Below are positions 1 through 19,395 of a stretch of 40,000 nucleotides of DNA, in pieces; within the stretch, counting starts at the first letter, position 1; every line of letters begins with the position of its first letter. The position numbers and the translations under genes are program-made. Below the pieces are notes generated by a model. It was not told where the DNA came from. It searched no databases and was given only the letters and a program-made list of their open reading frames with translations. Source of the DNA: an uncultured Acidobacteriota bacterium (GTDB taxonomy: Bacteria > Acidobacteriota > Terriglobia > Acidiferrales > UBA7541); contig CAWEFX010000005.1 of the NCBI GenBank assembly GCA_963808465.1, positions 110,921 through 150,920 on the forward strand. The letters are read 5' to 3'.

Positions 1-454
1 AACTCATGGTTCAGGCGAGGCTTTCGCGGATCTACTCGATGAATTCAAAAAGGCTTTGATTGATGAGGATGTTGCGGAAGACGTCTTGCTCTACGTCTCG
101 GTTGGGTCAAGCAGCGTTTGGATGAATTGATCGAAAGACAAAAGGCTGCAGTTATTAGTGTTGACGATTTCCGGCGGGGGTTTGATACATCCAAGTAGCG
201 TGCCAGAACTGGAGAAATCTCTGAAGGAACTCTGGAGCAACTTACGGGAACAATTAGAAATCGAGGCCGAACCGAATCTCATCAAGAGAGGCAAGCTTCT
301 CGCGCTCCGTTGTCTGCGGGAACGAAGACGAATCGAGGGACTTGAGGTGCCTGACGATTTTATCCCTGGATGTTTCCACATATTGGCCGACGTTCCAGAA
401 ATCGGATGGCACCCGCAATATGAAAAACTTCTCTCAAACGGAACAGCGCGATGA
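1..454 (+). pseudogene. 3' part of the ABC-3C effector-component gene (5' end outside the window), apparently frame-disrupted
   Basis: Protein-like reading jumps between frames. Frame 2 (2-127) reads ...EAFADLLDEFKKALIDEDVAEDVLLYVS and hits TGA at 128-130. Frame 1 (about 97-195) reads LGWVKQRLDELIERQKAAVISVDDFRRGFDTSK and ends at TAG 196-198. Frame 2 (about 190-454) reads SSVPELEKSLKELW...GCFHILADVPEIGWHPQYEKLL. The second junction sits at a G5 run (176-180). The stop overlaps the next gene's ATG (ATGA at 451-454), the usual ABC-3C gene order. Calling it the effector component is inferred from position only. Confidence 0.4.
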
Positions 455-945
455 GTGTCCTCGACGAAGAAATCAAACTTGTTCAGAATCCAGCCTATGG
501 GGCTCTCATTCTTGCTGGTTTCGTGCAGGGATACACGGAGGGCCATCCAGAGAGCGATGGCGCTCCAATGGAGTATCTGTTTGTGGCCCTTCCGATTTTG
601 CTCCACAAAGACACTCTCGACGTAATCGAGAGCACTCGATTAGGACTGCGAAAATTTGCGGAAAAGTTCATCTCCGGAGAGCAAGGTCGGACCGACCTCC
701 TTCTTTCAATTAACAAAAGATCGATTGATCTACGGCCACTCACTCTCGAATCAATTGAAATGATGCTTCTATCCGGTCTCGGGCACCTAAATCCAGAGAC
801 GGCAAAGTTTAGACCCCTGAAGATAATTGGTCTTGATGAACACCGTGGCTTGCCTAGGTCGGTTGAGCTTGCGCGTAGGCTTGGCGCTTGGTTTAGCGAG
901 TTGAGCTTCTTTGAGATTGGAAACATTTTGAAGGTCGCCTTCTGA
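451..945 (+). CDS. ABC-3C (ABC three-component system) middle component
   Basis: 164-aa helical protein (NPAYGALILAGFVQGY...LFVALPILLHKDTLDVIESTRLGLRKFAEKF). I recognise this as the family annotated three-component ABC system middle component. It is translationally coupled on both sides (ATGA at 451-454, TGATG at 943-947) and lies directly upstream of the DUF3732 ATPase. Confidence 0.7.
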   Translation: MSVLDEEIKLVQNPAYGALILAGFVQGYTEGHPESDGAPMEYLFVALPILLHKDTLDVIESTRLGLRKFAEKFISGEQGRTDLLLSINKRSIDLRPLTLESIEMMLLSGLGHLNPETAKFRPLKIIGLDEHRGLPRSVELARRLGAWFSELSFFEIGNILKVAF

Positions 946-2921
946 TGTATTTTCAGATAAAGGAAGTAATTCTCTGGCCTCGTAATCGCGCGAAGGAATT
1001 TAGACGCGTCAAGTTTGAAGCGGGAACGGTAAATGTCATAACTGGCGCTTCTCAAACAGGCAAATCGGCCATGGTGCCGATTATTGATTACTGCCTAGGG
1101 TCGGGCCGTTGCGCGATCCCTGTAAACACGATCCGAGATGCGACCGAATGGTTTGGAATACTCTTAACCACAAACAGAGGGGACGTTCTATTGGCGCGTC
1201 GAGAGCCCGGCGAGTTTATTGCCAGCGGCGACATGTGCATAATCGAGCTGCCCAAGGAGATCCCGGCAACCGCTCCTGACAAAAACACAACGCGCGACTT
1301 TGTGAAAACTTATTTGAATGAATTAACTGGTCTGACATCGCTAGATTTTGACCCGAATGCTGCTGGTACCTTCAGAGCACGCCCAAGCTTCCGTGATTTA
1401 GCGGCTTTCAATTTTCAGCCACAAAATGTCATCGCAAACCCAGATGTTTTGTTCTTCAAGGCGGATACCGTTGAACATCGAGAAAAGTTGCGGACCATTT
1501 TCCCTTACGTCTTGGGAGTTGTAACTGCTGACATTTTGGCAAAACGCTACCGACTTGAGGAACTGAGGCGTGAGGAAAAAAGACTATCGAGAGAAATTGA
1601 AACACTCAAACAAGCGTCCGACAGATGGCTTGCCGAACTACATATCAACTTGTCGAAAGCACGGGAGCTGGGACTGATTCCAAAAGACACGCCCGCAAAT
1701 GTTAGCCAGCAGGAAGGAATCGGTCTACTACGACAAGTCGTGACAAGACCATATGAACGCCCAAGGGTCACTGCTCAGACCATAGACACGGTGCTTACTG
1801 AACTAAATGATCTCAAGGGGGAAGAGGCGTCACTTTCGCTAGATCTTTCTGGGCTTCGACAGCGCTGGCTAGAAATGTCCCGTCTACGAAAGGCTGCTTT
1901 TGAATATCAGCAAGCGCTGATGACTGAGGAAGAGCGTCTCTCGATATCCACTTGGTTACTTGAACAGCGCGGGCAGGACGAGAGCAAATGCCCGATTTGT
2001 GGTAACTCAATGGATAGAACTCGCAGCCATCTCGAACATCTCGTTGCGTCACTGGAACAGGTAGAGGGAACCCGAACAAGTTTCCGCACCCTGCCGGAGA
2101 CTTTCGACAGAGAATACGTTCGGGTGCAAAGTGAAATCTCACAGAAAGCCTTACGACTGTCAAATGTTCAATTACGAATTGCGTCGCTTCAGGAGCTATC
2201 CGACGCTGAGAGAGAACGCAGGTATATGGAGATCGGTGTTTCAAGGTTCGCTGGCAAACTTGAGGCGGATCTCGCGTTGTACGATCGATTTAATTCAGAT
2301 AATGATCTCCTCAAGCGTCGGGAGGCCGTTGCCGCAGAAATTGCTCAGCCTTTGAAAGAAGTAGATGAACACTCGTTACGTCAGCGAGAAAAACGTGCGC
2401 TCGATAGGGTGACGCTTGTGATGAGCGCGCTTTTAAATAACCTAGATGTTGAGAATCCAAAAGACCCAGTTTCACTATCAGTTTCAGAGCTAACCCTAAA
2501 AATCAAGCGGCGCGAACGTGAAGATTTTCTTTGGGAAGTAGGAAGCGGGTCGAACTGGCTGGGGTATCATCTCGCCCTCTCAATCGCTCTTCAACAGTAC
2601 TTCCTTGAAATTACTGGTTCTCCGGTTCCGTCTTTCCTAGTTCTGGATCAACCTAGCCAAGTCTATTTTCCGAAAAAGCTCGCGGCTATCCCAGGCGACC
2701 AAGACCTGGATCCAAAGCTCGCTGATGATGATGCCCTCCGCGTGCGGCATATTTTCCAGTTGTTAGCACGAGTGGCTCAGGATGCCAAATCAAGACTACA
2801 GATTATCGTTTTGGATCACGCGGGGGACACGGTATGGGGCGACATTGAGGGTGTTCACTTGGTTGAAGAGTGGCGCGAGGGCAAGAAACTCGTGCCTATG
2901 GAGTGGATCTCTCCAACATAA
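945..2921 (+). CDS. DUF3732-type ABC/SMC-like ATPase of an ABC-3C system
   Basis: The N-terminus MYFQIKEVILWPRN...VNVITGASQTGKSAMVPIIDYCLGS carries Walker A (GASQTGKS) and is typical of DUF3732. A long charged, coiled-coil-like middle contains CPICG. The C-terminal part has Walker B / D-loop-like FLVLDQPSQVYFP and IIVLDHAGD. Confidence 0.85.
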   Translation: MYFQIKEVILWPRNRAKEFRRVKFEAGTVNVITGASQTGKSAMVPIIDYCLGSGRCAIPVNTIRDATEWFGILLTTNRGDVLLARREPGEFIASGDMCIIELPKEIPATAPDKNTTRDFVKTYLNELTGLTSLDFDPNAAGTFRARPSFRDLAAFNFQPQNVIANPDVLFFKADTVEHREKLRTIFPYVLGVVTADILAKRYRLEELRREEKRLSREIETLKQASDRWLAELHINLSKARELGLIPKDTPANVSQQEGIGLLRQVVTRPYERPRVTAQTIDTVLTELNDLKGEEASLSLDLSGLRQRWLEMSRLRKAAFEYQQALMTEEERLSISTWLLEQRGQDESKCPICGNSMDRTRSHLEHLVASLEQVEGTRTSFRTLPETFDREYVRVQSEISQKALRLSNVQLRIASLQELSDAERERRYMEIGVSRFAGKLEADLALYDRFNSDNDLLKRREAVAAEIAQPLKEVDEHSLRQREKRALDRVTLVMSALLNNLDVENPKDPVSLSVSELTLKIKRREREDFLWEVGSGSNWLGYHLALSIALQQYFLEITGSPVPSFLVLDQPSQVYFPKKLAAIPGDQDLDPKLADDDALRVRHIFQLLARVAQDAKSRLQIIVLDHAGDTVWGDIEGVHLVEEWREGKKLVPMEWISPT

Positions 2922-2994
2922 GCTGATCACTTTAGCTTGCTTGTGCACCTCCACTTCAGATCCGCTCGTGCCTGTGCCGTAATCCGTACCGAGG

Positions 2995-4728
2995 TTAGGG
3001 AACAACTGACGCCTTGTGCTTGTTGATAGCAGCGCTTAGGTTCGTAAGGAGCGGACGAAAATCAGTGAAGTCAATCGTATCCGCCTTCGGTCGGACGACC
3101 TTGTGCGCAAAGACCTTCTTACTGTAGTGCTTGTCCTTATCGAAGCCAACGCTGGTGTTAAGAGTCTTGCCATCAATAACTGTCGCCTTGATTGAAGCGT
3201 CGAAGAAGTCCTCGATCTTAGACGAAGTCGCAGGACCTATAAGTGGTGTCGGCACGGCATACAGGTTCTTGATGATATGAACAAACGGCTCGGATCCGGT
3301 GGGCATTACCTTCGTCGCCTCCTTTATCGCGTTCCAGACGTCCTTTGCACCGCTGTCGTTGTCATACAACAGTACGACCGGCTCTGTTAGCCCAGGGCCG
3401 GTGAAGTGTTTGGTCTCCTTCCTGTACGCGCCGATGAACTTTGCCAGCACGCTGCTGCCGCCGTCCTTAAGACCGAGAAGTCGCGCTGTACTTGTGCGGG
3501 GATACTTGTAGAGCCTGATCTTTAGCCGAATCTTTCCGTCAGGCATCACGTCCGCCAGAGTAGGGAACCCCGCCACGAGGCTTCGGATCGCATGCGTGAG
3601 ATAGACGTTATCGGTCTCTCCCTCGCAAATGACCACGGGAGCCTGAGCCGCGTAGAACGTGCTGTAGATTAAGAACTCTCGGTAAACCTTTTCGCTCGAT
3701 GACATCTCGTTGGACAGGGCATCCGACGTCTGAGTCTTGTTGTAGACCTCTATGCTGTCGATAAATCCCAGCATGCCGTGAAGCTCATTCGATGTGCCCG
3801 GCCGCTTCTCCAAGACAGCGTGTCCATCCTTTTGTGTCACACCAAGGATCTGGAATGTTCCGGTTTTAATAAGGCTGTGGACCATCGCCCGTACGTTGTG
3901 ACGGTACTCCCACCGAACATTAATCTTCTTGTTGACGACGAGGCCGGTTACGTTCTGCCGCGAGGCTCGGTACATCTGGTGTGTCTTCTTCGCGTTGATG
4001 CGAAAGCCGGTGCGCTCGATGACCTCCTGCAGTGCTTCACCGGGCACCCACAAATGGGAGGCAGGGCCCTCGGCACCTGACGGCAGGGCGATATCCGCTG
4101 GAAACTCTTTTTTGTTGGTCGAGAATGTAAGGTCATCCGCGTATCGGGAATATGTGCACCCGACCTTGGATGCCAGCTTCACCAGGCGCATGTCGAGCAA
4201 ATGAGCGACCAGATTGGATATGACTGGCGAGCAGGGGCTTCCTTGCGGCAGTGAGTGGTCGTGACAGGCGATCTGCGCAATCACCGTCGCGACGTCTTGA
4301 TGCAGCTGGAAGTCTTGGTTCTTGATCAGAAAACCGCGCACCCTACCGAAGTTGATTGACGGGAAGAAATCCTCCAGGTCCAGGTTGAAGACCCAGCGGC
4401 GGTGGCGGTGCTGTCGCGCATTTGTAATGATCGACCGCCTGCGCTTGAATCCGTGCGCCGCCCGGTCCTTGCGCTGCTTGGCTTTGTTTATTTCGTCGAC
4501 GCAGTCCTGCATGAGGTCGGACAGCTTGTGCTGCAGAAGCTTCAACCCATCAACAGGTGCCTTGATCGTTCGTTGCCCTCCATTCCGTTTGGGAATCTGG
4601 AAGGTCTTGTATTTCATCGCGTCTGGCTGTCGGTATGAGAGGTAAGAGACAGCTTTCGGCTTGAAATCCAGCAGCTTTGCCACGTCGCTGAGCGATGTCG
4701 CTGCCTTCAGAGTGGTAAGTCTGGACAT
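2995..4728 (-). CDS. Retron-type reverse transcriptase fused to a C-terminal TOPRIM domain (type I-C / Ec67-like architecture)
   Basis: RT motifs: QIPKRNGGQRTIKAP, FNLDLEDFFPSI, LPQGSPCSP, and the catalytic YSRYADDLTFS. Retron-specific signatures: NAxxH (ITNARQH) and VTG (RQNVTGLVVN). The C-terminal 200 aa or so has the TOPRIM Glu (VVICEGETDNVYL) and DxD (VLLYDNDSGAKD). At 577 aa it is similar in size to the Ec67 RT as I recall it. Confidence 0.85.
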   Translation of the reverse strand: MSRLTTLKAATSLSDVAKLLDFKPKAVSYLSYRQPDAMKYKTFQIPKRNGGQRTIKAPVDGLKLLQHKLSDLMQDCVDEINKAKQRKDRAAHGFKRRRSIITNARQHRHRRWVFNLDLEDFFPSINFGRVRGFLIKNQDFQLHQDVATVIAQIACHDHSLPQGSPCSPVISNLVAHLLDMRLVKLASKVGCTYSRYADDLTFSTNKKEFPADIALPSGAEGPASHLWVPGEALQEVIERTGFRINAKKTHQMYRASRQNVTGLVVNKKINVRWEYRHNVRAMVHSLIKTGTFQILGVTQKDGHAVLEKRPGTSNELHGMLGFIDSIEVYNKTQTSDALSNEMSSSEKVYREFLIYSTFYAAQAPVVICEGETDNVYLTHAIRSLVAGFPTLADVMPDGKIRLKIRLYKYPRTSTARLLGLKDGGSSVLAKFIGAYRKETKHFTGPGLTEPVVLLYDNDSGAKDVWNAIKEATKVMPTGSEPFVHIIKNLYAVPTPLIGPATSSKIEDFFDASIKATVIDGKTLNTSVGFDKDKHYSKKVFAHKVVRPKADTIDFTDFRPLLTNLSAAINKHKASVVP

Positions 4729-4746
4729 ACTTCACGAAATAAAGAG

Positions 4747-4879
4747 GGACTCACCGGCACTCCTTGGCGATAGACAATACACGATAGGCACATGGAGAGC
4801 CGCACACATAGCCAATGCATACTCCCTCACATTTGTTTCAAATGCCACGAAACATGGCACAAAATCTGCCGGCGAGTCC
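4747..4879 (-). ncRNA. Candidate retron msr/msd ncRNA (boundaries tentative)
   Basis: On the minus strand, GGACTCGCCGGCA (4879-4867) can pair with TGCCGGTGAGTCC (4759-4747). That is 13 bp including one G-U, an a2/a1-like long-range stem. A G follows the 5' arm directly (complement of 4866), where a branching G would be expected. An internal hairpin GTGCCA-TGTTTCG-TGGCAT is present. The 3' arm ends 18 nt before the RT ATG. No convincing long msd stem-loop was found. Confidence 0.35.
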
Positions 4880-4885
4880 GGGCGA

Positions 4886-4894
4886 ATTCTAACA
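4886..4894 (-). promoter_or_regulatory. Extended -10-like promoter element TGTTAGAAT upstream of the candidate retron ncRNA
   Basis: The minus strand reads TGTTAGAAT (TGn + TAGAAT). Its 3' end is 6 nt from the first base of the candidate a2 arm (4879). The -35 is weak (CAGACC). Confidence 0.3.
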
Positions 4895-5145
4895 TAGTGC
4901 TCGACTCGGTCTGGCAGGTCCCGTTAGGCCCGAATGAGTAAGCGGCGCAGCCCGTGAGATGTCTGGGCTCCTTGGATAGAAGCACACTGTTTTTTATCTC
5001 CTCTGGCGTAGAACGTTGAGGGCGTGTATATAGCTACATGATAATAATGTGCTTGTAATAATCTGGCAGCCCGTCTGAGGCGGATGTAAAACTAGGCCGA
5101 TTTTTACTGTCTAACAGTTGGGCTGTGCGCTCGACCGAGGTTTAC

Positions 5146-6471
5146 ATGCACTTACCGATTAATCCTAAATTCTTGATCTTGTTAGTCGCCGCCGCGATCT
5201 GTTCCATTGTTCTGGGTTGCGGTAGTTCGTCTTCTGGGCCCAACTCTGAAGCCGTTGATAATGTCCATAGATCCTTGGACCGAGCCGGGTACGAGGATGT
5301 CGTGGTGCGGCCTACCCACGGAGTTCTGGTGTTGGACGGAACGGTAGCCAGTGAAGGAGACAAAGCTCACGTACAATTCTTAGCCAAAGAAAATGCTGGA
5401 CCATTTGTTGTGTCGAATTATGTCAGTGTTCACTCTCCGGCGGATACGATACAAGCAAAAGTGGTCACTCAAGTTGAGGAAGAGAATTCTAACTATAGCG
5501 TCGTACGCATATTTTATGCGACTGACCGAAAGCTCTCCGGTTTTCAGCCACCTATAGCAAACTACACTGGGGATCGATCCGACGACGATGCTCTCTCTTT
5601 TGGAACCCTTGACGTCAGCATCCCGCAAAACCACCACGTAGGTGAATTAGAGAGACCTTCTATTCTGCGATTTGAGGTACGCGAAGACCCAGAAAAGCAT
5701 GTGGTAGTCCTGAAAGTCGCACTCAAATCGGAGGCTCAGTTTTACAGCGAAGTGTCCTCTAGAGTAGGTTCTTCAGCTGGTAAAGAAGCATTCGTGTTCA
5801 TTCATGGATACGATGTTAGCTTTCTTGACGCCGCTAGAAGAACGGCACAAATCGCATACGATCTGGGCTTTGATGGAGCTCCGATCTTATATAGTTGGCC
5901 GTCAAAAGGCGAGATCCTATCGTATCCGGCTGACGAAGCCACTATCGAATGGACCGCGCCCCATTTGAAGCAGTTTCTTGAGAAGCTTGCGCTTAAGTCG
6001 CACGCGACTACGATCAATCTGATCGCGCACAGTATGGGAAACCGCGCCTTAACCAATGCGTTAAATTCCATTGCCACAGAACATTCAGGTACGCCAATGT
6101 TCAACGAAGTTTTAATGGCCGCACCCGATATCGATGTGGGCGTTTTCAAGCAATTGGCAGCGATATTCCCAAAGCCCGCGACTCACGTAACTCTTTATAG
6201 TTCGTCCAAAGATGAAGCATTGATTGCGTCCAAAAAATATCACCAGTATCGTCGCGCCGGGGACTCAAGCCCCGTAGTAATTCTCCCGGGGATCGACACC
6301 ATCGACGCAACTGCGGTTGATACTGGCTTTGGCCATTCGTATTACGCTGACAATCGGGCTATCCTTGCTGATATCCATACACTTCTTAGAAGCTACGATC
6401 CTCCGAGCAAACGGTTTGGAATGCGGCCAAACAAACCTCAAAATCCTACGTACTGGATATTTAATCCCTAA
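5146..6471 (+). CDS. Lipoprotein with a BON-like domain and a DUF900-type alpha/beta hydrolase domain
   Basis: Signal peptide with lipobox (LILLVAAAICSIVLGC-GSSSS). BON-like segment (VHRSLDRAGYEDVVVRPTHGVLVLDGTVASEGDK). DUF900-like core FVFIHGYDVSFLDAARRTAQIAYDL...PILYSWPS...INLIAHSMGNRAL (nucleophile elbow HSMGN). The ATG at 5146 is preferred over the GTG at 5125 used in the ORF track. Confidence 0.7.
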   Translation: MHLPINPKFLILLVAAAICSIVLGCGSSSSGPNSEAVDNVHRSLDRAGYEDVVVRPTHGVLVLDGTVASEGDKAHVQFLAKENAGPFVVSNYVSVHSPADTIQAKVVTQVEEENSNYSVVRIFYATDRKLSGFQPPIANYTGDRSDDDALSFGTLDVSIPQNHHVGELERPSILRFEVREDPEKHVVVLKVALKSEAQFYSEVSSRVGSSAGKEAFVFIHGYDVSFLDAARRTAQIAYDLGFDGAPILYSWPSKGEILSYPADEATIEWTAPHLKQFLEKLALKSHATTINLIAHSMGNRALTNALNSIATEHSGTPMFNEVLMAAPDIDVGVFKQLAAIFPKPATHVTLYSSSKDEALIASKKYHQYRRAGDSSPVVILPGIDTIDATAVDTGFGHSYYADNRAILADIHTLLRSYDPPSKRFGMRPNKPQNPTYWIFNP

Positions 6472-6523
6472 AAAAGCAATGTGAGTTTTTCGCTACTCAC
6501 ACAAGCGGACAGAATGCGCAGAG

Positions 6524-6558
6524 GGGGTGCAACTTTGAGGGGCTCTATCTCCTATCCC
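6524..6558. repeat. Solo remnant of a casposon TIR end, just outside the left target-site duplication
   Basis: GGGGTGCAACTTTGAGGGGCTCTATCTCCTATCCC resembles the right TIR terminus GGGGGGCACTTTCGGATGCCCCTATCTCCTATCCCC (21677-21712). Its last 16 nt (6543-6558) are the exact reverse complement of left TIR positions 6573-6588. Confidence 0.5.
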
Positions 6559-6572
6559 GCGGCTGCCTTGAC
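6559..6572. repeat. Target-site duplication, left copy (GCGGCTGCCTTGAC)
   Basis: The identical 14-mer occurs at 21713-21726 in direct orientation. Each copy abuts the outer end of a TIR. A 15-bp length cannot be excluded because the preceding base is C at both sites. Confidence 0.75.
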
Positions 6573-6655
6573 GGGATAGGAGATAGAGGCGTCCGAAAGT
6601 GCCCCCCCCTCCCTCGGGGGCACCAGGGAAGGGGCCAGGGGCGACGGGCGCGCGC
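6573..6655. repeat. Casposon left terminal inverted repeat
   Basis: GGGATAGGAGATAGAGGCGTCCGAAAGTGCCCCCCCC... matches the reverse complement of 21631-21712 (GGGGATAGGAGATAGGGGCATCCGAAAGTGCCCCCCC...). The outer ~37 bp differ by 2 substitutions and a 1-nt tip indel. The inner ~45 bp are GC-rich with weaker similarity. Confidence 0.75.
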
Positions 6656-6693
6656 GAGCGCCACGGTGCGCGGGAAAGCGCGTGGGCCAACTT

Positions 6694-6713
6694 CCGAGAA
6701 CACCGTTTCTCGG
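6694..6713. repeat. Short hairpin repeat CCGAGAA-N6-TTCTCGG (copy 1)
   Basis: CCGAGAACACCGTTTCTCGG, a 7-bp perfect stem with a 6-nt loop. Related copies are at 7239-7259, 7783-7803 and 8589-8608. Confidence 0.6.
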
Positions 6714-6729
6714 GCACTGGGCGACTTCA

Positions 6730-7206
6730 ATGACCACGCCGTCTTCAACGGACTCGTGGCAGAATGGTCCGGCGATGAATATTGTTGATTCATTGAATCC
6801 GTTTGCGCGGCGCGTCTGGAGTGCTCTTTCCGCCGAATATCCCCACTGGACTGGCTACCTCGGCCTCTGCGGTGAAGACGACCTCGAAGTAGCAGTTCCA
6901 GCACCACCTGGGTCGAACGCAGGACATCTCGTGATCTTCACATCAGACGGCAAGGATTTGTGGATTCGGTTCAGTCCGCCGCGCATGTGCTATGCCGTTG
7001 ACGATGAGACAGAGATGCTGGAGATCATTCGTCAACTTCAGGACGACTCGGCTTTATTTGTTGTCACCATGCAGGGTGATGAATGGGTGGGGACAACGCT
7101 AATTAGGCCGGGGGACCTGCCTGAAGTTGAGTCGAATCAGATAGTGCATGTTGTCTCATGGTCTGGAAAACACGACCGCACCCTAATTACGAAAGCACCC
7201 GCCTAA
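6730..7206 (+). CDS. Hypothetical protein
   Basis: Long ORF with coding-like composition and no recognisable motifs. The start is uncertain: 6730 or 6775 ATG. The ORF-track start at 6682 overlaps hairpin repeat copy 1. Confidence 0.5.
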   Translation: MTTPSSTDSWQNGPAMNIVDSLNPFARRVWSALSAEYPHWTGYLGLCGEDDLEVAVPAPPGSNAGHLVIFTSDGKDLWIRFSPPRMCYAVDDETEMLEIIRQLQDDSALFVVTMQGDEWVGTTLIRPGDLPEVESNQIVHVVSWSGKHDRTLITKAPA

Positions 7207-7259
7207 GTCCCGAGAAGTTTGAGACCGATTCCCACTTACCGAGAACACCGTTTATCAGG
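7204..7259. repeat. Composite intergenic repeat: TAAGTCCCGAGAAGTT box plus a degenerate CCGAGAA hairpin (copy 2)
   Basis: TAAGTCCCGAGAAGTT (7204-7219) is identical to 8583-8598. CCGAGAACACCGTTTATCAGG (7239-7259) closely matches 7783-7803. Confidence 0.6.
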
Positions 7260-7280
7260 AGTTGGTCGCCTGATCCTCGT

Positions 7281-7469
7281 TCATAACCGCTTTTCGACCC
7301 ATAGCAACTGACCGGGAACTTCCAGCGTCCAGTTGTGGCCGCACGATGGACACAAGATTGTCTCAGTAGATATAGACAGGGTAGCGCTTTTTCCCACTCG
7401 ACAACGTATTACGACAGGCTTGCTGCAACGATTGCAGTGCTCATCTCTCGTGAACATCTCGGTTAGCAT
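7281..7469 (-). CDS. Small zinc-ribbon protein (hypothetical)
   Basis: MLTEMFTRDEHCNRCSKP...ILCPSCGHNW has two CxxC pairs. The start at 7469 was chosen to avoid overlap with the upstream ORF and is uncertain. Confidence 0.45.
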   Translation of the reverse strand: MLTEMFTRDEHCNRCSKPVVIRCRVGKSATLSISTETILCPSCGHNWTLEVPGQLLWVEKRL

Positions 7470-7485
7470 GGATGAGCCGATGTAA

Positions 7486-7716
7486 TCAGTGTGGCCTCGG
7501 CGTGCAGAGCGGGCACACCAAGTCACGCAAGGCGTGCAGTGCGTCTCTGAGGGCTGCTCGTTCGTCCTTGGCGAGTTTATCCGAGTGCAGCAGACGGCGG
7601 GTGATGGCCCTCTCCGCAGCGAGCAGGTTATGACAGTCGGCGGGCCACATCAGAGAATCAAACACCGCTCGTTGCCAGGGATACTTGGGTTGCCAAATCA
7701 TCGTGGGCCAAGGCAT
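7486..7716 (-). CDS. Small hypothetical protein
   Basis: 76-aa ORF with WQPKYPWQRAVFD...AAERAITRRL...ERAALRDALHALRDL. It resembles a small-protein family I associate with Acidobacteria-like genomes. Function unknown. Confidence 0.4.
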   Translation of the reverse strand: MPWPTMIWQPKYPWQRAVFDSLMWPADCHNLLAAERAITRRLLHSDKLAKDERAALRDALHALRDLVCPLCTPRPH

Positions 7717-7782
7717 GGGGCCGCGAGGATATCACAGCGGAGGCGCACGCAAACTATCCCCGAGTCAGCAAAAAGCCTCATT

Positions 7783-7803
7783 CCGAGAACACCGTCTATC
7801 AGG
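7783..7803. repeat. Degenerate CCGAGAA hairpin repeat (copy 3)
   Basis: CCGAGAACACCGTCTATCAGG, lying between two minus-strand small ORFs. Confidence 0.55.
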
Positions 7804-8002
7804 CACAGCGGACAAACATAAGTTCCGATCGTTGAAAAAGCGAGGTTTGCTTACAGTTGGTACACTCTAGCCAGCTACCGCCTTCGGGAAATTCCGGCTT
7901 TGAAGGTAAAGCCCAAAGCGCGTAATTCGGTTTCTCCATATCAATTTCCGAGTGAATAAAATGTTTCTTGCATTGTGGGCACTTTAGAATCCAATGTGGC
8001 AT
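7799..8002 (-). CDS. Small zinc-ribbon protein (hypothetical)
   Basis: MPHWILKCPQCKKHF...WLECTNCKQTS has two CxxC pairs. 67 aa. Confidence 0.5.
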   Translation of the reverse strand: MPHWILKCPQCKKHFIHSEIDMEKPNYALWALPSKPEFPEGGSWLECTNCKQTSLFQRSELMFVRCA

Positions 8003-8274
8003 TCGAGCCTGCTCCGCTTAAGTTCCCTGCTTCCTGGAGGTGCGGACAATTGTTGTTGATTCGGTGCGAGCCGTCGTTGTCCAACCGCAATGAGTGACTT
8101 CAATTCCTGAAAGTCCTTCTCGGAAGCTGGCAATAGTGGAAACTGCCTTTTACAAACAGCGAATTGTAGGTCGCAAGCATCTCATGGCATGATAGTGGTC
8201 TTCCTCAGCGCATCGACGGAAGCTAGCCACACCTAAGTATTTCGAAAATAAATTGAATCCAGAGAGGACTAAAA

Positions 8275-8526
8275 ATGGACTTGTCGCATATTGTTTCTGA
8301 GCTTAAGAATGAAAGAAATCGAATTGATAGAGCTATAGCAGCACTGAATGGACTGAATGGAACAGGTATACAAAGGACCACTAAGACAAGCTCTGTCAAA
8401 CCGGCCGCTAGAACAGCGAAACACCGTGGCCATCTGACCGCAGAGGGCAGAAAGCGGTTATCGGAAATGATGAAGAAGCGATGGGCGGAACGAAGAAAAA
8501 GGGCCACAGGCCGCAAGGCTGCCTAA
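8275..8526 (+). CDS. Small basic hypothetical protein
   Basis: 83 aa with an N-terminal helix (IVSELKNERNRIDRAIAALNGL) and a Lys/Arg-rich tail (GRKRLSEMMKKRWAERRKRA). A strong hairpin terminator follows. Confidence 0.55.
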   Translation: MDLSHIVSELKNERNRIDRAIAALNGLNGTGIQRTTKTSSVKPAARTAKHRGHLTAEGRKRLSEMMKKRWAERRKRATGRKAA

Positions 8527-8543
8527 GCGGGTTGTTAGTTTCA

Positions 8544-8580
8544 AAGGGCACGACTCGCACCGTGCCCTTCGTTATTTACC
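8544..8580 (+). terminator. Rho-independent terminator-like hairpin
   Basis: AAGGGCACG (8544-8552) pairs with CGTGCCCTT (8561-8569), giving a 9-bp stem followed by a T-rich tract (CGTTATTTACCTTT). Confidence 0.5.
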
Positions 8581-8582
8581 TT

Positions 8583-8608
8583 TAAGTCCCGAGAAGTTAT
8601 ATTCTCGG
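8583..8608. repeat. TAAGTCCCGAGAAGTT box plus a perfect CCGAGAA-N6-TTCTCGG hairpin (copy 4)
   Basis: TAAGTCCCGAGAAGTTATATTCTCGG. The stem is CCGAGAA (8589-8595) with TTCTCGG (8602-8608). Confidence 0.6.
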
Positions 8609-8635
8609 AAAGTGCGTTTGAGCTTCAAGCCACGT

Positions 8636-11600
8636 CTAAATTCCACCAAGTCTCCGCAGCGCTGCCACAATCAACTCCTGGTTTTTAGGATGCGGTCTTG
8701 TGTATCCGGCCCGGGCTTTCATAAGCATTCTGCGGGATCGAGGAATTTCTTTCACAAGAAGTGACAGTGGCACTTTGTTCATTGCAGGCCGAATTTTGGT
8801 TTCCCATTCATCGCGTTTCGGGTCTGGATATTCCGTGTACACGTTTTGCGCAGAGTGAATTAGACCGGCTTCGACTTCTTCGAGGCTGTTGGATTCCTTG
8901 CCGATGTATTTGAGTTGATCGATTCGAATGTGTCGCCGCTGCAGCAAACCAATCGTCTGCTTACCGCAGCGTTTTCCTTGTGCATCCGCACACTTTGATT
9001 CCGCATGAAATTCATATTCAAGTAGAACGTCGCCGTAAGTTTTCACACGCACGGCACCTCGCCTATCATGATGACCTTCGGTAGTTATACGGTGCGATTT
9101 CCCCGTATATTGGTCGATCCAATCTGTTTTGAGCCATTGCCTCGAATCTGCCTCATACGGCGCAATTAAGTGAAAGCGCTGTGGGTCTACATCGGGAGGA
9201 TAGCCGAACGGCCTCACGTGGCAGGTCTTCAGGAAATTGTATGGCTTGATCTGGTCGGGGTATCGTTTCCCCTCATTAAGGTTTGCTAAAGGCCTCATGA
9301 CGGCAGGACTGCTTATGGTCACACGTCCCACAGCTGGCAAATTCTCAAATCCCAAATTTTCGGTCGGCAAGTCCAAGGCTCTGCGAATAATGTTTGTCCA
9401 CGCTTGCGCTATCCACTCGCGGTCTTCGCTTTCAGGATCGGTTGGATTCAAAAGATGACCCAAGCCATGCTCAGACCATCGGTCCTCCTTATTATTAACC
9501 CCGTTCCGAAGCAGGATCGGTTCTCCATCCTCATTCTTAAGGAAAAGCGCATACCTCTTCGCGGAGATCGCGAGACAGTAAAGCTGGCGCTGATTCCCAT
9601 TTTTCGGATCAAAGTTATCATCCTCGATCTTTAGAATCGAGCCCGGTATTGCTTCGCGATTGTATGGATTAAGGGCGTCAAAACGCTGAGATATTTGCCG
9701 AATCTGTTCCCACGAAAGAGCGTGGATTACTTCGTGTCCATCGACAGAAGGAATCACTCCCCCGTGTTCCGTGGCAACGATTGCCATAGAGTCGGTATCT
9801 TCCATTGCATAGGTGCCGCCTAACTCCCGAACGGAGATTTCCAATAAGGCCAGAGTTAGCCTTGCCGCACCTGTAATCAATGATGCGAGCGGCGGAAAGC
9901 AAAATTCTCCGGGGACGTCAGGGTGAGCCACGCGGCAGGTGAACGGTTCTGGATCAATGCCGTGACAGTTTACGTTGACCTCTCGGTCGGATTCTTGCCG
10001 ATTCATTTCCGCATAGATGCCGTAGCTCGCCGCGTTTGCGAGGACTTTGAGGGCTTTATCGAGACGCGTCCGTTCGTTTTCGGGAAGGTCGGTCCGCGAC
10101 GATAAACGCTTGCGTTCCTCGATCGCAACTCTGAAGAAATCCTGCTCTTTTGGATCTATCGATATCGCGTTGCGCAGTTTCGTTCCATTGAGTTCTGATA
10201 GTTTTGGGTCTGCCGCGATACGGAACGCTTCGATAATCTTAGGAGTTCTCCCGGTCAAAAGTCTGGAAACAACAACATCAGGCAGCGAAAACCATAAGGC
10301 ATCGTTTGGGTCGTCATTTCGCGCGTAAATATGATTTACGGCAACTTGCCAGTCGTTGCTCTCAAGACTGTACTTGGCGCGAGATGGAAGAATGTCACCA
10401 TTCGGAATAACACGGACAAAAGCCTGTAGATATTGCCAGGTTCGGGGGTTGAACAAATCCACCACCTCTAGTCGTTTGAGAAATGCCCTTATTTCGTCGG
10501 CGCAGTTTTCTATAACCCGAATTTCACGGGCCGTAACAAAATCCCACAATCCCATGAGGCTGTTAACCGTGGGATACATGGAAAGGAAATCGCAATACAC
10601 GACCGGGACCGCGATTTTCCGAATATGCCCGCTTGCTCGTCCGCCGAAAAAGGCCGACTGCGCATACCCGAGATACGCTTTTGGAAAGTTTGGCTGCCTC
10701 TCAAAGATCGGTCTGATCCCCATCGCCCTCAGATATGACTTACCGATTGACGCTGGCGAATACGCTTTTGTAGCCTGGAGCGCTATCGGATGCTTATCGT
10801 ATTCTTCGAGCAGCTTCGCGGTTAGTTCTGAGGTGGCCAAAACATCGCGGCGGTTGTAATCAATGTATTCTTCTGTAACCTCGCCGTGGCGTTCAGCACG
10901 TTTTTTGCGATGCTCCACGCCGAAATCTTCGCAGGCGCTTTCTAATGTGTAGCCTTTGTCGGTGAGGGCAAATGCAAGGGTGCGTACGTCTAGGAAATGA
11001 CCGTGAAACACGTATTCCTTCGTTGGCCTTCCCGAACGCGAACCTTCCGGTATCAGATCGACTCTGTCAGGCTTTTTCCTGCCGGTAAAGGCTTTGAGCG
11101 CGCGTTTGCTGTCGATTTGTTTGATGGCAACTCTGGGCCGGTATTTATCTCGGCTCTCGTGGCCCTCTGGGTCGGAATATGACCATAATCCAAGCGAAAA
11201 ACCCCCGACAAAACGATCACGTGCGTCCGTGAAATCGCTAGCGACTCGGGAAATATCAAACGGGAAACTAAAAGCAATTAGAAGGCAGCGGCCCTTGTAA
11301 GCGGCTAAAAATAATCGATCGACGAATTGGGAGCGGCTAAGTAAACGGAGTGAGCTAATGCCATAAATCGTATCAGCCTTATGTTTTGAGACGTAATCCT
11401 CCAGAACTTTACGATCTTGCGTGGGTAGATCATCACCATAGAACAAACCTTCTTCCAGACAGTCACCCGAAACGATGAATCTGTAGCTTCCAAACGTGAG
11501 CCGCTGAGCCGCATCGACCCGCGTTTCCGTATCAAATACCAACATTGCATTTGGACGTGGTGGCGGTGGCTTCCGTGGTTCGAAATTCCTCCCTTCGGGA

Positions 11601-11698
11601 TAGACCCGTATCGCGATGGACAATGGATCGGGTACACGATCCGAGGCGCCGATTAGCGTGTTGGCACGAATTGCGCTATTGGAGTGTTCATCCACCAC
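8636..11698 (-). CDS. polB: Divergent family-B DNA polymerase (casposon PolB)
   Basis: ExoI LVFDTET; Exo-like YNRRDVLAT; motif A VVYCDFLSMYPTV; motif B KALKVLANAASYGIYAE; motif C TYAMEDTDSMAIV; KxY ISAKRYALF. 1020 aa. The start is uncertain: the GTG at 11698 overlaps the upstream ORF by 46 nt. Confidence 0.85.
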   Translation of the reverse strand: MVDEHSNSAIRANTLIGASDRVPDPLSIAIRVYPEGRNFEPRKPPPPRPNAMLVFDTETRVDAAQRLTFGSYRFIVSGDCLEEGLFYGDDLPTQDRKVLEDYVSKHKADTIYGISSLRLLSRSQFVDRLFLAAYKGRCLLIAFSFPFDISRVASDFTDARDRFVGGFSLGLWSYSDPEGHESRDKYRPRVAIKQIDSKRALKAFTGRKKPDRVDLIPEGSRSGRPTKEYVFHGHFLDVRTLAFALTDKGYTLESACEDFGVEHRKKRAERHGEVTEEYIDYNRRDVLATSELTAKLLEEYDKHPIALQATKAYSPASIGKSYLRAMGIRPIFERQPNFPKAYLGYAQSAFFGGRASGHIRKIAVPVVYCDFLSMYPTVNSLMGLWDFVTAREIRVIENCADEIRAFLKRLEVVDLFNPRTWQYLQAFVRVIPNGDILPSRAKYSLESNDWQVAVNHIYARNDDPNDALWFSLPDVVVSRLLTGRTPKIIEAFRIAADPKLSELNGTKLRNAISIDPKEQDFFRVAIEERKRLSSRTDLPENERTRLDKALKVLANAASYGIYAEMNRQESDREVNVNCHGIDPEPFTCRVAHPDVPGEFCFPPLASLITGAARLTLALLEISVRELGGTYAMEDTDSMAIVATEHGGVIPSVDGHEVIHALSWEQIRQISQRFDALNPYNREAIPGSILKIEDDNFDPKNGNQRQLYCLAISAKRYALFLKNEDGEPILLRNGVNNKEDRWSEHGLGHLLNPTDPESEDREWIAQAWTNIIRRALDLPTENLGFENLPAVGRVTISSPAVMRPLANLNEGKRYPDQIKPYNFLKTCHVRPFGYPPDVDPQRFHLIAPYEADSRQWLKTDWIDQYTGKSHRITTEGHHDRRGAVRVKTYGDVLLEYEFHAESKCADAQGKRCGKQTIGLLQRRHIRIDQLKYIGKESNSLEEVEAGLIHSAQNVYTEYPDPKRDEWETKIRPAMNKVPLSLLVKEIPRSRRMLMKARAGYTRPHPKNQELIVAALRRLGGI

Positions 11699-12156
11699 TT
11701 TGATCCCAATGACTCCCGCAGAAATGCATCAGCCTTTTCTAACATCTCTGGAATCCAAAGCAGCATTTTCTTAACGAGGTAGATGATGTAATCGACAAAG
11801 CCGCGAATGCATGCGGCAGCGCGTAAGAATGGGCTACCGTCGGAATTTTCAAGCGTCTGTTTGGGCCAATTGTACTGAGCTGCTGATAGTTCAGCACGAT
11901 GGTCGTTTAATGGTGCGGGCATGGTTGTCTTGTCGTTCGCTCGGCCTGCCACGTGATGTAAATCCTCTTTTGCCTTTCCTTCTTTTTCTCGCTCACACTC
12001 TCCGCAAATAATAGTTTTCCCGTGCCTCTCAAGAGCCAACGGACGCGCCTCACCGCATGCACACTGCGCACCGACACCAACGCGCCGCGCAGCCGCAGCA
12101 TTGCGGGCGTATGCACCAATAGCGTCGCATTCTGGCAATTCTAGTTTGTTTGGCAT
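11653..12156 (-). CDS. Zinc-finger / HNH-like protein (putative nuclease)
   Basis: CxC...CxxC (QCACGE...IICGEC) followed by DLHHVAGRANDKTTMPAPLNDHRAEL, a loose HNH pattern (HH...N...N-x-H). It sits in the same operon directly upstream of PolB. Confidence 0.45.
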   Translation of the reverse strand: MPNKLELPECDAIGAYARNAAAARRVGVGAQCACGEARPLALERHGKTIICGECEREKEGKAKEDLHHVAGRANDKTTMPAPLNDHRAELSAAQYNWPKQTLENSDGSPFLRAAACIRGFVDYIIYLVKKMLLWIPEMLEKADAFLRESLGSKWWMNTPIAQFVPTR

Positions 12157-12777
12157 TTACGCAGACCTCGCATAGAGCGTTTCAAACGACAAGACACCCG
12201 CGCTCGCTAGCCGATCCAACTCAGCTAGATCGGTAAGCAAAGGAACAATCCTGCCATTCGCATCAATGAAAGACTGACCTGTGAATTGTTGGATTGCCGA
12301 GGCGTCGCCGGTTTGGACGTAACGATCAGCGGCATTCCAATGCTCGGAAACCACAGACGCTTGGCGGGAGTCTCGCAAGCCTACCACCAGTCGCCGCCCT
12401 TGCGGTCCTTCCTGCGTCAATACTCCGAGCACGCGCAACAGCCGATCACTTGCTTTGGGGGTGTACCGTCCGTTTGGCTTCTTCCGCAGAACTGAACCGG
12501 CCAAGCGGCGGACCGTACGCGGACTAATGTGATATTCACGTGATACTTCTCGAAGTGATTCCTTATCTTTTCGCATTTGTGTGACGACGTGGGTCATCCG
12601 TTCCCATCTGTCTTGGAAACTTTCAGATCTGGCGACGAACTCTTCGGCGGTCCGGGGTGCGCGTTGCTGTGGAAATCTTCGCTTCATACCATCCTCCAAG
12701 GGTGTGTATTCCGATGGTTTCTTAGACCTTGAGCCTACACCTGTTTTTTGGGTTCCAGAGGCAAAATAGGCTGACAT
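12157..12777 (-). CDS. HTH-domain protein
   Basis: HTH-like SLREVSREYHISPRTVRRLAG. It abuts the HNH-like ORF (stop at 12157, next start at 12156) and is the first gene of the minus-strand HTH-HNH-PolB operon. Confidence 0.55.
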   Translation of the reverse strand: MSAYFASGTQKTGVGSRSKKPSEYTPLEDGMKRRFPQQRAPRTAEEFVARSESFQDRWERMTHVVTQMRKDKESLREVSREYHISPRTVRRLAGSVLRKKPNGRYTPKASDRLLRVLGVLTQEGPQGRRLVVGLRDSRQASVVSEHWNAADRYVQTGDASAIQQFTGQSFIDANGRIVPLLTDLAELDRLASAGVLSFETLYARSA

Positions 12778-12814
12778 CGTGGCCCCAATAGGGCCATAAT
12801 GTTATGGCACTCTG

Positions 12815-13297
12815 ATGACCAAGGCCAAAATGAACCGTTACGAAACGCAGGTATTGGTTGTCCTATTCGAGCGGATGTTTGGACAGAGAGTCACAAACTT
12901 AAATCTCAGCAAACACGAAATCCTCGCAGAAGGATTCGACAATCTCAATGACAGACTCGGCTCCATTGTGGGACACCTGATCAAGTCATATGGAATGGTG
13001 ATCAAAAACCAAGCACAGGCCAACGGCGTGATAGAAACAATTCGCAAAATGTCAGAGAAGGATGTGCGTATGGTGAGGAAGCAACTGAATGAAACGATGC
13101 GAACATTCCTCGGAAGCGCGGAGAAACTGGGAAGAAGGGAAAAGCTAACGGCGACACAGAAAAAGGACTTTTGTGGAATTGTCGGCACCTTTATTGGCAA
13201 CGGTCACAGCTTGAAAGACGCCTTACAGCTGGCGGCTGGTCAGCACAAGGTAAGTTTCAGAACTGGGCGACGCATTTGGGAGAATCGGCCATACTGA
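12815..13297 (+). CDS. Hypothetical helical protein, possible C-terminal HTH
   Basis: 160 aa. The C-terminus GHSLKDALQLAAGQHKVSFRTGRRIWENR looks HTH-like. It is divergent from the PolB operon and directly upstream of Cas1. Confidence 0.45.
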   Translation: MTKAKMNRYETQVLVVLFERMFGQRVTNLNLSKHEILAEGFDNLNDRLGSIVGHLIKSYGMVIKNQAQANGVIETIRKMSEKDVRMVRKQLNETMRTFLGSAEKLGRREKLTATQKKDFCGIVGTFIGNGHSLKDALQLAAGQHKVSFRTGRRIWENRPY

Positions 13298-13379
13298 GAA
13301 CCAAAACATGAATTGCAGCGGGACGCGCCGGTGCGCTAACACCGAACGCGCCCCTGACTACCACGGAGGTAGTGCTCCA

Positions 13380-14915
13380 ATGGCAGCTTCGGCAAACGTA
13401 TATCAACTTCCGCATTCCAGCAATTTACTCACCCCGCGACATGGGACGCTGACCCTCTACGGATATGGAATTCGGGTTTACGTAGAACGTGGTCATTTGA
13501 TCGTGAAGGACGGAATCGGTTGTGATCGCCACGAAGGACGCTTCGCTCGTGTAGGGCATGGGTTGCGTCGCCTGGTTGTAATTGGGTCCGACGGATTCGT
13601 CTCCCTGTCCGCCCTCAACTGGTTAGCAAATCAGGAAGCAGCATTTCTCATGCTTGAACGGGATGGCAAGCTTCTCTTAGCAACGGGGCCAACCGGTCCT
13701 TGGGATGCGCGGCTTCGTCGCTCACAAGCTCTCGCACGAAACACACACGTCGCCTTAGATATCGCTCGCGAACTAATCACGCAAAAGTTGACCGGGCAAG
13801 AACAGATTGCCCGAGACAGACTTGAGGATCAGGCCGTGGCGGACACGATTGCTCAAGCGCGTGCCGATGTGGGCGCAGCCGATACAATTGAGATGATTCG
13901 CTTGCTGGAAGCACACGCAGCGCACGCGTACTGGACGGCATGGCGCAAACTCAAAATTGATTTCCCGAAAAGCGATCTCCAGCGCGTACCTGATCACTGG
14001 CTTTCATTCGGAACACGCAAATCCCCGCTGACACGTTCACCTCGTCTCGCGGGTAATCCAGCTAATGCAATTCTTAATTATTTATACGCGCTTCTCGAAT
14101 CGGAAGCCCGGCTTGCTGCTGTTGCGCTTGGATTAGATCCCGGCATTGGCTTTTTGCACGTTGAGACTGACGCTCGCGACAGCCTCGCTTGCGACTTAAT
14201 GGAGGCGATTCGCCCACACATTGACGCCTACGTTCTTGACTGGATTCGTCGGCAGCCGTTCCGTCGCGAGTGGTTCTTCGAAAAGAGCGATGGCAACTGC
14301 CGTCTAATGGCACAGTTCTGCTTGCGACTTTCGGAGACGACACAAACATGGGGCGCTTTGATTGCTCCAGTTGCCGAGTGGGTCTCGCGCACCCTATGGT
14401 CAACAATTCGGAACTCAGGTCGGCAGGTTCATCCAGCTACCCACCTTACACAGACTCACAGACGAGAGACTAAACGCGAAGGATGCGGACTGCCCCTTCC
14501 GCCAGCGCCCCAAGCTCCCCGCGTCTGTCCACACTGCGGAGCTTCAGTAAAGGCAGGAAAAACTCACTGCGCTCCCTGCGCCATCACCATACAGCGGCAG
14601 GGATTCCTAAAGATCGCGGAGCAAGGACGAATGGTCTCACACTCAGCCGAATCTGAGCTTAAGCGCGGGGCCACACAGCGAAAGCGACATGAGGCTCAGC
14701 GTAATTGGCACATTTGGAATCATCCGACATGGCTGACGGAGCAGTTTTATTCCGAACAGATTCAGTCGCGACTTGGCAAAGTGGAAGTTAAAAGAATAGC
14801 TGCGACTCTAGGTGTATCGATCACATACGCCAGCTATATTCGCGCCGGGCGACGGCGGCCACATCCAAGACACTGGGAGACGCTGGCGCGACTCGTGAGG
14901 GTTGGACAGGACTAA
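13380..14915 (+). CDS. cas1: Cas1-family integrase (casposase) with a C-terminal zinc ribbon and HTH extension
   Basis: Cas1 signatures: LEAHAAHAYW, RLAGNPANAILNYLYALLESEARLAAVALGLDPGIGFLHVETDARDSLACDLMEAIRPHIDAYVLDW (conserved E, H and D/E context). C-terminal CPHCG...HCAPC, then IAATLGVSITYASYIRAGRRRPHPRHW. The ATG at 13380 follows GGAGGT; the ORF-track start is 13308. Confidence 0.9.
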   Translation: MAASANVYQLPHSSNLLTPRHGTLTLYGYGIRVYVERGHLIVKDGIGCDRHEGRFARVGHGLRRLVVIGSDGFVSLSALNWLANQEAAFLMLERDGKLLLATGPTGPWDARLRRSQALARNTHVALDIARELITQKLTGQEQIARDRLEDQAVADTIAQARADVGAADTIEMIRLLEAHAAHAYWTAWRKLKIDFPKSDLQRVPDHWLSFGTRKSPLTRSPRLAGNPANAILNYLYALLESEARLAAVALGLDPGIGFLHVETDARDSLACDLMEAIRPHIDAYVLDWIRRQPFRREWFFEKSDGNCRLMAQFCLRLSETTQTWGALIAPVAEWVSRTLWSTIRNSGRQVHPATHLTQTHRRETKREGCGLPLPPAPQAPRVCPHCGASVKAGKTHCAPCAITIQRQGFLKIAEQGRMVSHSAESELKRGATQRKRHEAQRNWHIWNHPTWLTEQFYSEQIQSRLGKVEVKRIAATLGVSITYASYIRAGRRRPHPRHWETLARLVRVGQD

Positions 14916-15053
14916 TGCGACACGTAGACGCAGTGGTTTTGCGGTTGGTGGCAGCGGTCTCGGCCCAGAAAAGACCGAGCTTACCAGGACATAGGCTTTA
15001 CGGATTGAAATCTCGCCCGGTTCAATCCCTTGCGCTGGTTTCGGGGGTCCGTG

Positions 15054-15833: not shown

Positions 15834-16144
15834 GATTACTCCTCGATTAGAGAGAAACTTACTGCCGAGGGGATAAAATCTGGTAGAGGTTATCAGGTAA
15901 TAAGCTGAATTGGAAGCTACCACGTAAGCATCTGAGCAACCGGCACTGCCCTCAGCATCTCCTGGTCCTTCCTTGCGAGGGGTGAACTTTGCAAGTCGGC
16001 CTAAATTCCTGTAAGCCGTGCGAGGTCCTCCCCATGCCGTTCGTGCGGACGGCGCTTTCCCCTCCGATATCAGCAGCGTATGCGCTAAACAATGAGGTCT
16101 TTAGACTTGAACTCTTTGGGACTCGCCGTATGATTGGCGTGCCA

Positions 16145-17273: not shown

Positions 17274-17310
17274 ACCACTCGTTTGCCCATTGTCCGTACA
17301 CCGCGAATGT

Positions 17311-17436
17311 GAAACCATCGAGGTTAAGAAAATAGCTGCGAGCTTGGTTGTCTCCCTCTCGGACGCCAGCTGTATTCGGGCGGGCCGACTCATACCACAT
17401 CCACGGCATTGGAAATTGCTCGCAGAAATTCGGTGT
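17311..17436 (+). pseudogene. Degenerate remnant of a second Cas1 3' end (HTH region)
   Basis: ETIEVKKIAASLVVSLSDASCIRAGRLIPHPRHWKLLAEIR aligns with the Cas1 C-terminus KVEVKRIAATLGVSITYASYIRAGRRRPHPRHWETLARLV (14777-14900). The nucleotide similarity is also visible. No upstream Cas1 body is attached. Confidence 0.6.
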
Positions 17437-19363: not shown

Positions 19364-19395
19364 CGCTTCTCCAAAGGGGCGGCTATTCGGGGCGG

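Follow-up and report, generated by a model that had tools for sequence, protein, structure and literature searches.

A terminal inverted repeat relic beside a resident casposon at the rpmH promoter of a Terriglobia bacterium, probably left by an earlier occupant of the site

The closest described parallels to the locus analysed here come from Methanosarcina. Tandem casposons in this genus are separated by one shared target-site duplication (TSD), and solo terminal inverted repeats (TIRs) lying by a conserved target motif across 43 M. mazei strains have been read as remnants and as possible precursors of CRISPR (Krupovic et al. 2016, PMC4779613). These solo TIRs arose repeatedly and are interpreted as the remains of degraded casposons, and Krupovic et al. 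liken the accumulation of casposons to that of Tn7-like elements (PMC4779613). In vivo, a mini-casposon has been seen to insert into the TSD of a resident casposon, and excision in M. mazei is precise, with no TIR left behind (PMC10359463). In A. boonei, a leader motif on one side of the target fixes the insertion point (PMC6614799). Our literature search for casposons in Acidobacteria returned passing mentions only, and no description was found of a Terriglobia casposon family or of its rpmH promoter target.

The window, that is, the whole stretch of 40,000 nucleotides of Terriglobia DNA that was analysed, carries a resident casposon of 15.1 kb at 6573–21711. Its left TIR (6573–6619, plus strand; nhmmer E=6.6e-8) is 47 nt long and 85% complementary to its inverted-repeat partner, the right TIR (21665–21711, minus strand; E=6.1e-7). 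The casposase, a Cas1 with a C-terminal Zn-ribbon/HTH tail (13380–14915, plus strand; Pfam Cas_Cas1, E=4e-40), has more than 6000 homologues, and among its best matches in the PDB is 6opm (E=1.9e-17), which we take to be the casposase of M. mazei. A family B DNA polymerase (PolB) of 1020 aa is encoded at 8636–11698 on the minus strand. Its match to Pfam DNA_pol_B_2 (E=8.6e-6) scores 25.3 bits, slightly below the cut-off of 25.8 and weak by the Pfam threshold alone; the protein has the polymerase motifs YAMEDTDSM (DTDS) and KRY (KxY), is 61–68% identical to the ORF adjacent to Cas1 in four related loci (L002, L004, L011, and L015), and finds no sequence match in the PDB. No CRISPR-like array is present among the repeats of the window, and no Pfam Cas2 match was obtained among the ORFs scanned. 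The segment 6573–21711 thus combines the features by which a casposon is recognized, namely a Cas1 without a CRISPR array, PolB, and TIRs bounded by a TSD of 14–15 bp. Its GC content is 51.7%; the host right flank has 57.2%, and the 6.5 kb on the left have 50.6%.

Several internal repeats of this casposon are recorded here in their own right. The C-terminal HTH segment of Cas1 has a diverged second copy in the cargo (14784–14887 vs 17320–17423; 70% nucleotide and ~58% amino acid identity). A 96-bp unit, originally listed as five overlapping 192-nt copies at 96-nt spacing, is repeated in tandem about six times at 15201–15776, inside an ORF at 15054–15923 (minus strand); the cargo protein encoded there contains repeats and has no real match to any family. 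Near the left end, three 40-nt repeats lie 545 bp apart (6687–6726, 7232–7271, and 7776–7815); each contains a CCGAGAACACCGTTTCTCGG-like hairpin, and the three may correspond to small paralogous genes.

The TSD of the resident element is GCGGCTGCCTTGAC, with a left copy at 6559–6572 and a right copy at 21713–21726 (both plus strand), the only two exact copies (n=2, starting at 6559 and 21713) in the window. It can also be read as a 15-bp duplication, CGCGGCTGCCTTGAC, at 6558–6572 and 21712–21726, again with both copies exact; the additional base of the left copy is C6558. The last five bases of the right copy open the −35 hexamer of a promoter-like site, TTGACC-17 nt-TACACT (21722–21750, plus strand), and the following C completes its TTGACC. 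This site is the sole one of its kind in 21500–22000, where 0.1 would be expected, and forms the conserved host side of the target. Downstream lies rpmH, encoding ribosomal protein L34 (21849–21989, plus strand), the first gene of rpmH-rnpA-yidD-yidC. The promoter-like site is conserved upstream of an identical L34 protein in L005 and L024–L033. Insertion of a casposon rebuilds the rpmH promoter (TTGACC-17-TACACT).

The same promoter is the usual target in related genomes, with a TIR, a 14-mer ending in (C/G)(C/T)TTGAC, the promoter, and rpmH following one another in the window and in L005, L026, L028/L033–35, L030, L031, and L032. Loci L004 and L036 have rpmH-like 14-mers, and the other sites (L002, L003, and L015) likewise end in TTGAC. 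At least eight independent Terriglobia loci use the rpmH promoter site. The single shared target is the −35 box of the predicted rpmH promoter. The TSDs of the window (21713–21726, GCGGCTGCCTTGAC) and of L030 (21033–21046, GCAGTTGCCTTGAC) differ at two of 14 positions, which recalls the report from M. mazei of a casposon carrying its TSD to a new site, with numbers too small to conclude. Elsewhere in the window, a near-perfect palindrome, TTGTTTCACGTGAAACA, occurs twice in host intergenic DNA (31486–31506 and 31553–31573, 67 bp from start to start), and the pair resembles putative paired sites for a dimeric regulator.

On its outer side, the left TSD copy forms the loop of a palindrome. The arm CTCTATCTCCTATCCC (6543–6558), the TSD GCGGCTGCCTTGAC (6559–6572), and the arm GGGATAGGAGATAGAG (6573–6588) make up an exact inverted repeat of 16 bp, as the earlier note on this DNA had described, with 16 of 16 positions complementary; the junction is written ...GAGGGGGTGCAACTTTGAGGGGCTCTATCTCCTATCCC, then GCGGCTGCCTTGAC, then GGGATAGGAGATAGAGGCGTCCGAAAGTGCCCCCCCC... 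A repeat search of the window extends the pairing of the arms to 37 nt at 78% (6523–6559 with 6572–6608). Simple arithmetic puts the chance expectation for a perfect 16-bp inverted repeat whose loop is at most 20 nt at about 2e-4 per 40 kb of random sequence. Folded as single-stranded DNA, 6515–6615 reaches −31.9 kcal/mol (z = −5.8), a value equalled by none of 200 shuffles. Both the palindrome and the strong fold follow from two related TIRs abutted tip to tip, and are thus a geometric by-product of the layout. Nothing indicates that the 16-bp palindrome has a function of its own; Rfam finds no family match over the whole window, and the palindrome is thus not a known RNA. A hairpin or terminator role was considered and set aside, given that the sole terminator-like site nearby is a separate hairpin on the minus strand (6502–6479). 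That hairpin with its T-run is set for leftward transcription and lies between the stop codon of a DUF900 gene and the inner edge of the left-arm sequence.

The left arm belongs to a TIR relic of 37 nt (6522–6558, plus strand), which is oriented as a right end and points its tip, at 6558, towards the TSD. When 11 bona fide TIRs of related casposons were made into a profile, with relics left out, the profile matched this stretch at E=5.5e-5 (nhmmer, 22.1 bits, model positions 4–40 of 40). Aligned from the tip with 20 bona fide TIRs, the relic reaches a score of 21, where the maximum of a null of 4000 random host 40-mers is 10. The resemblance to the terminus of the right TIR, which had been put at about 35 bp, is thus borne out: 6523–6558 is 75% identical, ungapped, to 21676–21711. 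The arm also complements the left tip better than the right TIR of the element does, at 16/16 against 15/16 ungapped; the "two differences" once ascribed to the right tip are one mismatch in 16 and one extra C at 21712, for which that wording is acceptable. The exact TIR tip pattern is found at three sites in the window only (6545, 6573, and 21698).

The relic is not simply a further copy of the resident ends. Its inner half, GAGGGGGTGCAACTTTG, is unlike both resident TIRs (GGGGGGGCACTTTCGGA), indicating that it was not copied from them, and it belongs to a subtype with the sequence GGGATAGGAGATAG(A/G)G(C)...CAAAGTTGCACCCCC. It is near-identical to the relic of L029, with an alignment that spans 38 nt, and in L029 the same arrangement of tip beside target is found at an unoccupied rpmH site. 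The tip of the window relic is fully intact (16/16) and those of several relatives are mutated (L031, L033, and L036), for which reason the older copy may be poorly described as "decayed". The stretch has two of the properties of a solo TIR, homology to a casposon TIR and a tip, at 6558, that abuts the target motif GCGGCTGCCTTGAC. No Cas1, PolB, or second TIR is found in 1–6521, which ends at the window edge and is shorter than a casposon arm can be (more than 6.5 kb), and the tip pattern and profile searches find no further TIR-like sequence in 1–6500. The subterminal motif GCGCGCGCG was considered as a marker that would tell full from truncated ends, and was rejected because it is missing from several bona fide ends.

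Twenty-odd related loci (the L numbers used here) were gathered through Cas1 homologues and the exact L34 protein, with Terriglobia as hosts. A contig search with the window Cas1 gave only three distant loci, at 52–57% identity, and no viral contig among those searched had the TIR tip together with TTGAC. The junction of TIR, 14–15 bp, and TIR recurs in L003, L004, L031, L032, L033–35, and L036. In many cases the type of the outer TIR is not that of the resident, and relics span at least three TIR types. In L004, the right TIR of a window-type casposon is followed by GTCAAGGCGCCCGAA and then by a TIR of the L005 type; in L032, a window-type casposon is followed by the TSD and an L005-type TIR (score 34/40); and in L033–35, an L030-type casposon is followed by the TSD, a window-type relic with a degenerate tip, and then a host gene for an ABC-binding protein. 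In L031 and L036, relic and resident share one TIR type, and the relic tips are mutated. In L003, a relic with a window-type tip, element A, and element B are all separated by the 14-mer CTGTCGCGTTTGAC, and L003 and L032 are true or partial tandem arrays. It should be noted that the L003/L014 locus (9149–14296 onward) holds a 5-kb element with Cas1 and without PolB (9163–14242), in tandem with a PolB-bearing element from 14257.

Of the 11 occupied sites at which the outer junction can be seen, seven have a clear relic (scores of 21–34, and 12 in L003), two are borderline (L002, 11; L030, 5), and two, L005 and L015, have none. In the comparison of homologous loci that had been proposed as the test, relics lie beside a single target copy at three unoccupied rpmH sites (L029, score 23; L024; and L025), and a TIR-like flank is lacking at the empty rpmH site of L027 (score −2), as it is at the occupied site of L005 (score −4). 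The relics of L024 and L025 are degenerate, and one in L025 keeps a subterminal motif 50–70 nt in. Two further candidates were rejected: L028, taken for a relic at an unoccupied site, is really the end of an L033-like casposon at a contig end, and the pre-target repeats of L024, taken for multiple TSD footprints, look like a 10-bp slippage repeat.

Host relationships bear on how the relics were deposited. YidC is 85–86% identical to that of the window in L024, L025, and L028 and 51% identical in L029, and the closest match to the window relic thus comes from a distant host, which fits independent deposits by a mobile element and not vertical inheritance. L030 comes from the same species as the window, with a right flank that is 97.6% identical over 508 bp. 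At the same position, it has a different casposon (Cas1 78% identical, TIR GGGGTGTTATACGAGC...) and a different left flank, where no significant TIR-like sequence is found (score 5, reached by 3% of null 40-mers) and where the rpmH site is flanked by a gene for a 954-aa CHB_HEX protein. The cargo of casposons in L030–L036 includes genes for RT, SIR2-like, DndB, GmrSD/HNH, KAP NTPase, and N6/N4 methylase proteins, as well as a recurrent block of DCD, adenylosuccinate-synthetase-like, AAA_18, and RNase_H_2 genes; defence-type cargo seems usual in this group.

From these data, 6522–6558 is probably the promoter-proximal TIR of an earlier casposon, beside which the resident inserted later into a regenerated target. 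The TIR homology of the relic, the exact TSD, the recurrence of the layout in relatives, the heterotypic relics, and the relic-free sites are all observed, and a course of events can be proposed from them. The target is a segment of 14–15 bp that ends in TTGAC, the −35 box of the rpmH promoter. Every casposase-mediated insertion duplicates it, so that an intact copy stays by the promoter. The resident (6573–21711) would have entered this regenerated copy, with new insertions choosing the rpmH-proximal one, and the older end would have been pushed away from rpmH. The presumed outcome, in order, is the old right TIR, TSD, the new left TIR through to the new right TIR, TSD, and rpmH. The older body may have been deleted or may lie beyond the left edge. 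If it was lost, illegitimate deletion is the likely route, because in vivo excision in M. mazei is precise (PMC10359463), and since deletions reaching into the essential rpmH promoter would be lethal, the promoter-proximal end may be the one to survive. The suggestion of the earlier note that the left arm is the right end of an older copy, left by serial or tandem insertion, is supported by the recurrence of the junction and by the heterotypic outer TIRs. Against it, no second left end and no older core gene are found in the 6.5 kb to the left.

Relics are always found on the side away from rpmH, and none lies between a casposon and rpmH at the occupied sites examined. This implies that a determinant outside the TSD sits on the promoter side and consists of TTGAC with the promoter.

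The fate of the older body is also the point on which the strongest rival turns. It is a real possibility, though short of an even one, that the "relic" is the functional right end of another substantial casposon that extends past the window start, with the genes to the left as its cargo. The left region (1–6471), a defence island, encodes a Lamassu LmuC (451–945, in a low-GC region), a Lamassu LmuB/DUF3732 protein (945–2921; PADLOC, 6e-123), a retron type I-C RT-Toprim protein (2995–4728, minus strand; 6e-225), and a DUF900 hydrolase (5125–6471, in a low-GC region); the DUF3732 gene had been named ABC-3C at first reading, and PADLOC assigns it to LmuB instead. A second Cas1, P0012, is 80% identical to the window casposase and lies on the same contig of 825,579 bp, so that much of the older copy may survive, with P0012 as its Cas1. 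P0012 may come from a partner in tandem immediately upstream of the window, or else from a casposon at another place on this contig. Such a partner would agree with the concentration of most members of the resident's casposon family at the single rpmH site, with the intact tip of the relic, and with the GC content of 1–6522 (50.6%), which is like that of casposons (51–54%) and unlike that of hosts (57–63%). In relatives, the DNA from Cas1 to a TIR holds 7–8 kb of cargo with RT and defence-type genes, and a retron-like RT is found in a Methanosarcina casposon (PMC4779613). However, Cas1, PolB, and a left TIR are all absent from the 6.5 kb available, and the left-flank proteins have no homologue in any related locus besides generic RT similarity. 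The DUF900 family is commonplace, its homologues being ordinary and very frequent genes whose N-terminal domains vary (the nearest is 70% identical), and the protein search found no near-identical copy elsewhere. In relatives, moreover, the outer TIR usually soon meets host-like DNA: host DNA begins within ~230 bp in L033, the GC content is 60% in L031, and a PMT_2 gene lies at 2.4 kb in L004. Region 1–6471 may have been carried by the earlier casposon or may be an island unrelated to it.

If an earlier casposon left its end behind, as we favour, the leftover itself might act as a landing pad, with TIR-bound casposase recruiting further casposons or with the junction serving as a substrate that drives loss of the older copy. 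This is unlikely. The frequency of relics at occupied sites (7/11) could mean that an adjacent TIR favours insertion; the single clean in vivo integration in M. mazei entered the TSD of a resident casposon, and the junction is equivalent to the TIR-TSD-TIR joint in the circle that the same study proposes as an intermediate (PMC10359463). Insertions without a relic at L005, L030, and L015 argue the other way, and a plain hot spot with turnover accounts for the counts. We regard it as similarly doubtful that the leftover TIR is active, in the sense that casposase on the TIR or on the TIR-TSD-TIR joint steers newcomers and promotes loss of the predecessor's body. If it were, the rpmH site would be an array, anchored by a leader and turning over, in which TIR relics alternate with spacers the size of a TSD. 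Such a site would be a living counterpart, in bacteria, of the route from solo TIRs to CRISPR arrays that has been proposed, and defence cargo (Lamassu, retron, SIR2, DndB, and GmrSD in or beside the elements) would be delivered there.

Far less probable is a native leader, the alternative offered earlier, according to which the TIR-like stretch is original to the chromosomal target and is recognised by the casposase in the way that CRISPR Cas1–Cas2 recognises leader and repeat. A TIR-like sequence does lie by the 14-mer at many rpmH sites, unoccupied ones included, and the casposase of A. boonei requires a motif outside the TSD (PMC6614799). A leader should be present irrespective of casposon history, but the stretch is absent at L027, which is empty (score −2), and at L005 (score −4) and L030, which are occupied, the latter with a different left flank (score 5) in spite of its 97.6% identical right flank. 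These loci contradict a native leader. In addition, the relics are of at least three TIR types and often unlike the resident (L004, L032, and L033), the best match to the window relic comes from a host at 51% YidC identity, whereas hosts at 85% carry degenerate relics, and the rpmH side always holds the complete element, placing the conserved determinant across the TSD, in TTGAC and the promoter. Finally, short palindromes are common and the relic tip is identical to the resident left tip, but chance resemblance or local duplication of the resident's own TIR can practically be dismissed in view of a 37-nt homology (E=5.5e-5), an inner half that matches L029 and not the resident, and a layout that recurs in many loci.

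Taken as the end of an earlier occupant, the relic is a solo or terminal TIR set tip to tip with a resident casposon. It is a clear and fairly ordinary example of a phenomenon already published for Methanosarcina. What this locus adds is that the phenomenon extends to a large bacterial casposon family in soil Terriglobia, and that casposon lineages replace one another at the rpmH promoter, even between genomes with 97.6% identical flanks. The one-sidedness of the relics leads to a testable prediction of which flank is read by the casposase, and targets with and without a relic are natural substrates for integration assays.

Compared in detail, the family 2 solo TIRs of M. mazei (PMC4779613) are single gene-free TIRs at a casposon site, beside the target motif, as the relic here would be if it is solo. 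The host here is bacterial (Terriglobia, Acidobacteriota), and insertion takes place in the −35 region of the rpmH promoter, whereas the sites in M. mazei are intergenic or at tRNA-Leu. The target motif, TTGAC, closes the TSD on the side of the host promoter (in the outer copy, this end abuts the left TIR), whereas in M. mazei it is CGCA at the 5′ end of the TSD; and the relics here stand back to back with a complete casposon, often with a TIR type different from that of the resident. The tandem casposons of Methanosarcina sp. 2.H.T.1A.3 and 2.H.A.1B.4 (PMC4779613) have the same order of right TIR, single TSD, and left TIR, arising from re-use of the target, although here only one casposon is demonstrable and the other partner is seen as 37 nt of TIR only. 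The mini-casposon of M. mazei used the "left" TSD (PMC10359463), whereas the arrays described here are consistent with use of the rpmH-proximal copy. The casposase system of A. boonei (PMC6614799) shares a TSD of 14–15 bp and a one-sided determinant outside the duplication that fixes the next insertion; in the present case, the predicted leader-like flank is the side of the rpmH promoter and not the relic. Tn7-like arrays share repeated insertion at one site by an essential gene, with live and dead elements side by side, but here the enzyme is a Cas1 casposase instead of TnsABCD, and the target is a promoter instead of the 3′ end of glmS.
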